Origin: Escherichia coli O127:H6 str. E2348/69
Lineage (GTDB): Bacteria; Pseudomonadota; Gammaproteobacteria; Enterobacterales; Enterobacteriaceae
Reading direction: 5' to 3' (one strand)
NCBI RefSeq assembly: GCF_000026545.1
Contig: NC_011601.1
DNA: 64,000 bases
The notes under the pieces were generated by a model. That model did no database searches. It was not told the origin of the DNA and saw only the letters and a program-made list of their open reading frames with translations. Position numbers and translations under genes: made by a program. Positions 13,866 to 15,460 of this stretch are shown piece after piece; position 1 is the stretch's first letter, and each line of letters begins with the position of its first letter.

Positions 13866-14013
13866 GATTCGCCTGAACATGCCCTTTTTTCGTAAGTAAG
13901 CAACATAAGCTGTCACGTTTTGTGATGGCTATTAGAAATTCCTATGCAACAACTGAAAAAAAATTACAAAAAATGCTTTCTGAACTGAACAAAAAAGAGT
14001 AAAGTTAGTCGCG

Positions 14014-14122
14014 TAGGGTACAGAGGTAAGATGTTCTATCTTTCAGACCTTTTACTTCACGTAATCGGATTTGGCTGAATATTTTAGCCGCCCCAGTCAG
14101 TAATGACTGGGGCGTTTTTTAT
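14014..14122 (+). ncRNA. spf: Spot 42 small regulatory RNA
   Basis: Sequence GTAGGGTACAGAGGTAAGATGTTCTATCTTTCAGACC...GCCGCCCCAGTCAGTAATGACTGGGGCGTTTTTTA recognised as Spot 42, ending in its intrinsic terminator; lies directly downstream of polA as expected. Confidence 0.85.
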
Positions 14123-14246: not shown

Positions 14247-14879
14247 TTATTCGCCGTCCTGCGTTTCTTCTACAGGCTGCATCTCGCTAAACCAGGTATC
14301 CAGTTTCTGCCGCAGCTTGTCCACGCCTTGTTTCTTCAGCGAAGAAAACGTTTCAACCTGCACATCACCGTTAAACGCCAGCACCGCTTCACGCACCATA
14401 TTCAATTGCGCTTTACGTGCGCCGCTTGCCAGTTTGTCCGCTTTGGTCAGCAGTACCAGCACGGCGATATTGCTGTCTACCGCCCACTCAATCATCTGCT
14501 GATCCAAATCTTTCAGCGGATGGCGAATATCCATTAGCACCACCAGACCTTGCAGGCTCTGACGTTTTTCGAGGTACTCGCCGAGCGCGCGCTGCCATTT
14601 GCGCTTCATCTCTTCCGGGACTTCCGCATAACCGTACCCAGGCAAGTCAACCAGACGCTTGCCGTCAGCCACTTCAAACAGGTTGATAAGCTGGGTGCGC
14701 CCCGGGGTTTTTGAGGTACGAGCCAGGCTTTTCTGGTTAGTCAGCGTGTTCAGCGCGCTGGATTTACCTGCGTTGGAACGGCCTGCAAAAGCCACTTCAA
14801 TTCCGGTATCGGAAGGTAGGTGGCGAATATCAGGCGCACTCATCACAAAATGCGTCTGTTGATAATTCAAATTAGTCAA
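14247..14879 (-). CDS. engB: Ribosome biogenesis GTP-binding protein EngB/YihA
   Basis: GTPase with G1 motif GRSNAGKSS; 210-aa product if translation starts at the TTG at 14877-14879 ([12 protein letters not shown]...), which is my recollection of the reference start; the track ORF begins 5 codons upstream at an ATG. Confidence 0.85.
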
Positions 14880-15149
14880 AGCGGTCGTCTCCATCAGTCA
14901 AAGCTTTGCGGCGATTATACCTGAACCATAATAAAAGGCGGATTTTTCGGCGTGAGCGTTGTAAGTAAAAGCCATATGCTTTGTGAGACATTGCCGATAG
15001 TCTTTATGCGAAATAGCAGAGAAAATTCTGCGACGTATGTCAAATAAGCTATATAAATCAGTTAATTGCTTTTATATAAAACTCTGAAAATGTGCAAATA
15101 CTGATGGCGGTTGATTGTTTATTTAAAGCAAAGGCGTAAAGTAGCACCC

Positions 15150-15394
15150 ATAGAGCGAGGACGCTAACAGGAACAATGACTCAGGATGAGGGTCAGGAGC
15201 GCCAGGAGGCGAAGACAGAGGATTGTCAGGAAGATAAACGTCCGGAGACGTAATTAAATGGAAATGGAATCAACACGGATTGTTCCGGCTAATGGAAAAA
15301 CAGGGTGTGTTGGCGGCCTGCAAGGATTGTAAGACCCGTTAAGGGTTATGAGTCAGGAAAAAAGGCGACAGAGTAATCTGTCGCCTTTTTTCTT
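15150..15394 (+). ncRNA. csrC: CsrC small RNA (CsrA-sequestering)
   Basis: About 245 nt containing many GGA motifs (CAGGATGAGGGTCAGGAGCGCCAGGAGGCGAAGACAGAGGATTGTCAGGAAG...) and ending in the terminator AAAAAAGGCGACAGAGTAATCTGTCGCCTTTTTTC; between engB and yihI as in E. coli. Ends are approximate. Confidence 0.75.
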
Positions 15395-15460
15395 TGCTTG
15401 CTTTCTGTTAGATTCCGCCGCAAATCTATACTGAATAAAACGGCTAAAAGACGAACCATT

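Follow-up and report, generated by a model that had tools for sequence, protein, structure and literature searches.

EngB, also called YihA, is an essential GTPase of ribosome assembly that acts on the 50S subunit and is present in the cell at low abundance. The closest described counterpart of the locus considered here is yihA/engB of Escherichia coli K-12 (b3865, NP_418301.3; PDB 1PUI). Its translation start was established by Nakahigashi et al. in 2016 (PMC4909307), who mapped initiating ribosomes with tetracycline (TetRP) in K-12 BW25113 and carried out COFRADIC N-terminal proteomics on six replicate cultures. Table S2 of that work gives yihA a new start, the codon TTG, 36 nt upstream of the start in the 2006 annotation (U00096.2), which was the ATG of Met13; the TTG matches the 2014 GenBank record. 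TetRP reads were 181, 190, and 153 at the TTG versus 0, 0.36, and 0 at the 2006 ATG, and an N-terminal peptide with Met at the TTG was recovered in 6 samples, while the older start yielded none (PMC4909307 Table S4). A methionine at a TTG-encoded position arises only by initiation, and the start is thereby settled for K-12. The TTG start of engB is therefore already known, as a standard and experimentally supported annotation.

Three further genes from the same TetRP table, ybeZ, bisC, and yhjK, exemplify the same situation. Like engB, they have a conserved non-AUG start (UUG or GUG) that was reannotated from a nearby ATG, their weak start codon is served by a proper Shine-Dalgarno (SD) sequence, and they were corrected through conservation analysis together with initiation profiling. 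Unlike them, engB has attracted two wrong ATGs: Met13 downstream and an upstream ATG, limited to about 19% of strains, that arose from a single-nucleotide polymorphism (SNP) inside the ribosome-binding site. The TetRP study additionally described dual starts for 28 E. coli genes (PMC4909307). The supplements of two other data sets, the TRAINSPOTTER E. coli N-terminomics and a Salmonella riboproteogenomics study, do not mention yihA or engB.

Here, we consider the engB start in the enteropathogenic strain E. coli O127:H6 E2348/69, using a stretch of 64,000 nt from contig NC_011601.1 (hereafter, the window). We conclude with high confidence that the gene is translated from the UUG at 14879..14877 on the minus strand to give a 210-amino-acid protein and that the upstream ATG is no start signal. 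To what was known, the analysis adds that this ATG is a polymorphism overlapping the SD sequence, that a 215-amino-acid model persists in public databases, and that the start is a non-AUG codon in all 80 species compared.

The engB locus of E2348/69

The gene lies on the minus strand and was identified as EngB/YihA of E. coli. Its translation contains the GTPase motifs G1 (the P-loop, GxxxxGKS), G3 (DxPG), and G4 (xKxD), and it matches the YihA/YsxC equivalog profile TIGR03598 with a score of 252.1 bits (cut-off, 124.45) over residues 15 to 198 of the 215-amino-acid open reading frame (ORF), a profile that starts downstream of every candidate start and thus does not discriminate between them. 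The solved structure of E. coli EngB, PDB 1PUI, has 210 residues, all of which (210/210; E-value, 2.7e-136) are identical to residues 6 to 215 of the long ORF. A 951-nt engB region was found in 5,425 of 5,426 complete E. coli genomes, and the neighborhood is the canonical polA - spf (Spot 42) - yihA - csrC - yihI - hemN. K-12 shares with the window this gene order, the same 210-amino-acid sequence, the TTG, the GGAG, and the 9-nt spacer between them. Coordinates of the features discussed are collected in Table 1.

Both neighbors of engB are small RNAs, and each carries an annotated reading frame of its own. RefSeq/PGAP places a pseudo-CDS ("hypothetical protein; frameshifted; internal stop") inside CsrC at about 15176..15342 (+) in E2348/69 and likewise in K-12 GM4792, while the MG1655 record has csrC as an ncRNA in place of the pseudo-CDS; the pseudo-CDS looks like an annotation artifact on a noncoding RNA. 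Inside Spot 42, RefSeq annotates SpfP, a 15-amino-acid dual-function small protein, at about 14031..14078 (+).

Table 1. Features of the engB start region and neighboring genes, in window coordinates
Feature	Position	Strand	Basis
engB/yihA CDS, TTG start through stop (210 aa, 633 nt)	14247..14879	-	RefSeq CDS of E2348/69 at same coordinates; 1PUI identity; TIGR03598
TTG initiation codon	14877..14879	-	RefSeq start (K-12 and three ATG-allele genomes); 80-species conservation; TetRP peak and Met-initiated peptide in K-12
Shine-Dalgarno core GGAG, 9 nt upstream of TTG	14889..14892	-	Best anti-SD duplex in region; 80/80 species, columns invariant
Upstream in-frame ATG, longest-ORF choice	14892..14894	-	C-to-T polymorphism at 14893 (ACG in K-12)
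In-frame TGA shutting the frame 7 codons upstream of TTG	14898..14900	-	Direct sequence reading
Met13 ATG, start in 2006 K-12 annotation, since dropped	14841..14843	-	TetRP ~0; moved -36 nt in 2014 record
Probable -10 hexamer TATAAT (perfect)	14914..14919	-	Conserved in 80 species; inferred
sRNA CsrC	15150..15403	+	Rfam RF00084, 276.7 bits
Spot 42 sRNA, just downstream of engB, convergent	14003..14121	+	Rfam RF00021, 122.8 bits

Signals for initiation at the TTG

On the minus strand, the start region reads ...TATAATCGCCGCAAAGCTT TGA CTG ATG GAG ACG ACC GCT TTG ACT AAT TTG AAT TAT CAA CAG ACG CAT TTT GTG ATG AGT.... A mechanical ORF list takes the longest frame, 14247..14894 (-), which begins at the ATG two codons downstream of the TGA and encodes 215 amino acids. 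The TTG is codon 6 of this frame, and starting there trims exactly five residues, METTA, to leave a 210-amino-acid protein that begins MTNLNYQQ. The first-pass annotation, which had proposed this TTG as the probable start and counted five added residues for the ATG of the ORF track, was accurate in both the residues and the coordinates.

The two codons differ sharply in their context. The first G of the GGAG is the G of the upstream ATG, such that the ATG overlaps the ribosome-binding site (AUGGAG). When the 3' end of 16S rRNA was matched to the 20 nt upstream of each candidate, the anti-SD duplex reached -7.3 kcal/mol for the TTG versus -0.7 kcal/mol for the upstream ATG and -1.1 kcal/mol for the Met13 ATG. 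An in-frame TTG close to an N terminus is not unusual by itself; three things lift this one above chance: a GGAG that precedes it by 9 nt, the conservation of that element in 80 of 80 species, and direct experimental data from K-12.

From these elements, a simple mechanism can be proposed. The GGAG 9 nt upstream would position the 30S subunit at the UUG, which the initiator tRNA would read as formyl-Met. The upstream AUG is then best read as a decoy, a by-product of a presumably neutral C-to-T change immediately 5' of the GGAG; judging from the 3'-end sequence of 16S rRNA, neither U nor C at that position would pair with the anti-SD. This AUG has no ribosome-binding site of its own, and only about 13 nt would separate it from the inferred transcription start.

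Two other features of the region were considered. The CTG right after the in-frame TGA was rejected as a start, since it lacks both an SD and conservation and since the K-12 peptide has Met at the TTG. Also, two copies of a 9-mer, GCTTTGACT, lie 22 nt apart; one directly follows the inferred transcription start, and the other spans the TTG start codon (region 14882..14904, minus strand). The TTG within the upstream copy is out of frame. The repeat is probably due to chance, because it is not kept in the Citrobacter youngae type or in other genera.

Conservation of the start across Enterobacteriaceae

The start region was compared in 80 species of Enterobacteriaceae (loci L003 to L082), codon aligned to the TTG of the window. 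Of the aligned codons, 74 are TTG and the remaining 6 are GTG; none is ATG. GGAG is present in all 80, with a spacer of 6 to 9 nt to the start codon (9 nt in 61 species). By comparison, the hexamer ATGGAG is found in 28 of the 80, in frame in 21 and out of frame in 7, the latter because the spacer length differs. In 35 of the 80 species, the open frame upstream of the start codon contains no in-frame ATG, GTG, or TTG; this open frame is 6 codons long in Escherichia, Salmonella, and many Citrobacter.

Column entropy, computed on the 51 distinct sequences with a 9-nt spacer, marks where coding begins. Downstream of the TTG, the values are 0.09, 0.28, and 0.78 bits for codon positions 1, 2, and 3, which is the periodicity of coding sequence, and residues 2 to 12 are conserved in this manner. 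For the 15 nt that precede the TTG, the corresponding values are 0.39, 0.62, and 0.42 bits, without periodicity, and the conserved block is GGAGA. Conservation does not extend to Met13 itself; other species have ACC as the consensus codon, and the middle base is C in 75% of sequences.

The start codon is non-ATG in all 80 species although neighboring third positions vary freely. A start that is never ATG would fit selection that favors a weak start codon and low engB expression, a reading of the alignment that falls short of proof and leaves room for phylogenetic inertia.

A construct of the Klebsiella protein offers a related observation. In PDB 7SZS, chain A reads ...M-L-T-N-W-N-Y-Q around residues 9 to 11, and the K. 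pneumoniae genome (L064) has GTC TTG ACC AAC TGG. Apparently, cloning preserved the native TTG, which was then translated as Leu behind a Met supplied by the vector or primer. If so, this Leu would be a minor practical effect of having a non-ATG start.

The upstream ATG is a polymorphism within E. coli

Exact-match counts of the 61-nt start region in 5,424 complete E. coli genomes defined haplotypes by the bases at two variable positions, 15 and 31, the latter being the middle base of the ATG/ACG codon. The K-12 haplotype, A/C, has ACG as the upstream codon and occurs in 3175 genomes; G/C, also with ACG, occurs in 1180; and G/T, the haplotype of the window, has ATG and occurs in 1051, leaving 18 genomes with other haplotypes. 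ACG is thus the codon in 4355 of 5424 genomes (about 80%), and the upstream ATG is a minority allele at about 19%. K-12 and the window differ at two bases of this region: the base that turns ACG into ATG five codons upstream of the TTG and one more just downstream of the inferred -10 hexamer. Since the outgroups E. albertii, Salmonella, and another Escherichia sp. have ACG, the ATG is most simply derived within E. coli.

This polymorphism bears on how the K-12 experiments are read. Because K-12 has ACG upstream, it has no competing in-frame ATG, and the data from BW25113, which carries that allele, are silent on the use of the ATG in E2348/69. We infer the use of the TTG in E2348/69 itself from K-12.

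A putative promoter and short leader

Upstream of the start codon, at a distance of 31 to 39 nt, every one of the 80 species has TATAAT (73) or TATACT (7), which points to a conserved -10 element. The poor -35 meant that a strict two-hexamer sigma-70 scan yielded no promoter; we regard the conserved hexamer as a probable -10 element and do not count the outcome of the strict scan against it. If TATAAT is the -10, transcription would start near 14907, and the leader would be about 13 nt to the ATG and about 28 nt to the TTG. Among published start-site maps, the Cappable-seq supplement has no coordinates near the predicted engB transcription start, and the SMRT-Cappable-seq supplement has no yihA entry.

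In folds of this putative leader, the upstream AUG is predicted to be unpaired. A leader hairpin at the start codon (AAAGC with GCUUU) was set aside: it depends on the assumed transcription start, and Citrobacter and other genera do not retain the bases that would pair.

Competing readings of the start

Because the direct data come from a strain with ACG, the alternative that deserves most attention is dual initiation in E2348/69, in which the TTG would be the main start and the ATG would be used at a low level, yielding a minor 215-amino-acid proteoform extended by METTA, with the TTG read as Leu. AUG is an intrinsically stronger start codon than UUG. The ATG of the window is in frame, it is predicted to be unpaired in the folds of the inferred leader, about 19% of complete E. 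coli genomes carry it, and the 28 genes with dual starts (PMC4909307) set a precedent. Against these points, the ATG has no upstream SD (-0.7 kcal/mol) and instead overlaps the one that serves the TTG, the inferred leader gives it only about 13 nt, and the five extra codons do not display coding-type conservation, the ATG even being out of frame in 7 species. On balance, we consider low-level use of the ATG unlikely.

Much less probable still is that the upstream ATG is the true, principal start in E2348/69 and that the protein has 215 residues. The proposal follows the longest-ORF choice, and it can cite the 215-amino-acid sequence deposited from NCBI, JGI/IMG, ENA, and UniRef (ENGB_ECOK1) on 549 contigs, but a principal start would have to work with no SD and with a codon that 80% of E. 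coli genomes and the closest outgroups lack. Moreover, RefSeq takes the TTG even in genomes with the ATG allele, and the K-12 protein demonstrably begins at the TTG. The internal start at Met13, which the 2006 K-12 annotation (U00096.2) used for a 198-amino-acid protein, is an ATG preceded by a GTG. We give it almost no credence, since published data refute it: TetRP reads were 0, 0.36, and 0, and no N-terminal peptide was found (PMC4909307). Its anti-SD duplex (-1.1 kcal/mol) is weak beside that of the TTG, and the ACC consensus at this codon, with C at the middle base in 75%, together with the coding periodicity of residues 2 to 12, also argues against it. The preferred reading, initiation at the TTG, is the one that RefSeq, 1PUI, the SD sequence, the 80-species conservation, and the TetRP and N-terminal peptide data from K-12 bear out.

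Annotation of the start in databases

RefSeq places the start at the TTG (633 nt, 210 amino acids) in E2348/69, K-12 GM4792, and MG1655 (NP_418301.3, 4050133..4050765), and the protein WP_000183349.1 is common to K-12 GM4792 and E2348/69. For the E2348/69 CDS, locus position 1772 corresponds to window position 14879. The TTG start is likewise annotated in two further genomes with the ATG allele, such that all three ATG-carrying genomes that were checked, E2348/69 included, agree.

The 215-amino-acid mis-annotation does persist in public databases. This exact ATG model has been deposited for several E. coli strains, from NCBI, JGI/IMG, ENA, and UniRef, and occurs on 549 contigs; its UniRef representative is ENGB_ECOK1 (n=19). 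UniProt entries of this kind generally take over the gene model of the submitter rather than experimental evidence. The caution in the first-pass annotation that a non-ATG start is easily mis-annotated is borne out by this model. That annotation had also named two checks, and both agree with the TTG: the curated EngB/YihA entries of RefSeq, including NP_418301.3, and of 1PUI have 210 residues, and N-terminal proteomics of K-12 BW25113 found, in 6 samples, the peptide whose Met lies at the TTG (PMC4909307). As for curated references that might back the ATG instead, one does so nominally, ENGB_ECOK1, and no experimental support for the ATG was found.

Over its annotation history, yihA has been given two different wrong ATG starts, Met13, 36 nt downstream of the TTG, and the upstream ATG; NP_418301 stands at version 3. 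The text of EcoGene 3.0 names yihA only as an uncharacterized gene and holds nothing on its start.

Implications

The significance of these findings is small beyond annotation hygiene. Gene callers that prefer ATG or the longest ORF keep spreading the 215-amino-acid model in strains with the upstream ATG, and the locus exemplifies how an SNP adjoining an SD sequence can make a decoy ATG. It is also conceivable, though we think it improbable, that strains with the AUGGAG allele, which make up about one-fifth of E. coli and include the enteropathogenic strain E2348/69 and those with deposited 215-amino-acid models, may use the SNP-created AUG at a low level, which would give rise to a lineage-specific EngB extended at the N terminus or would slightly alter EngB output through competition with the UUG.
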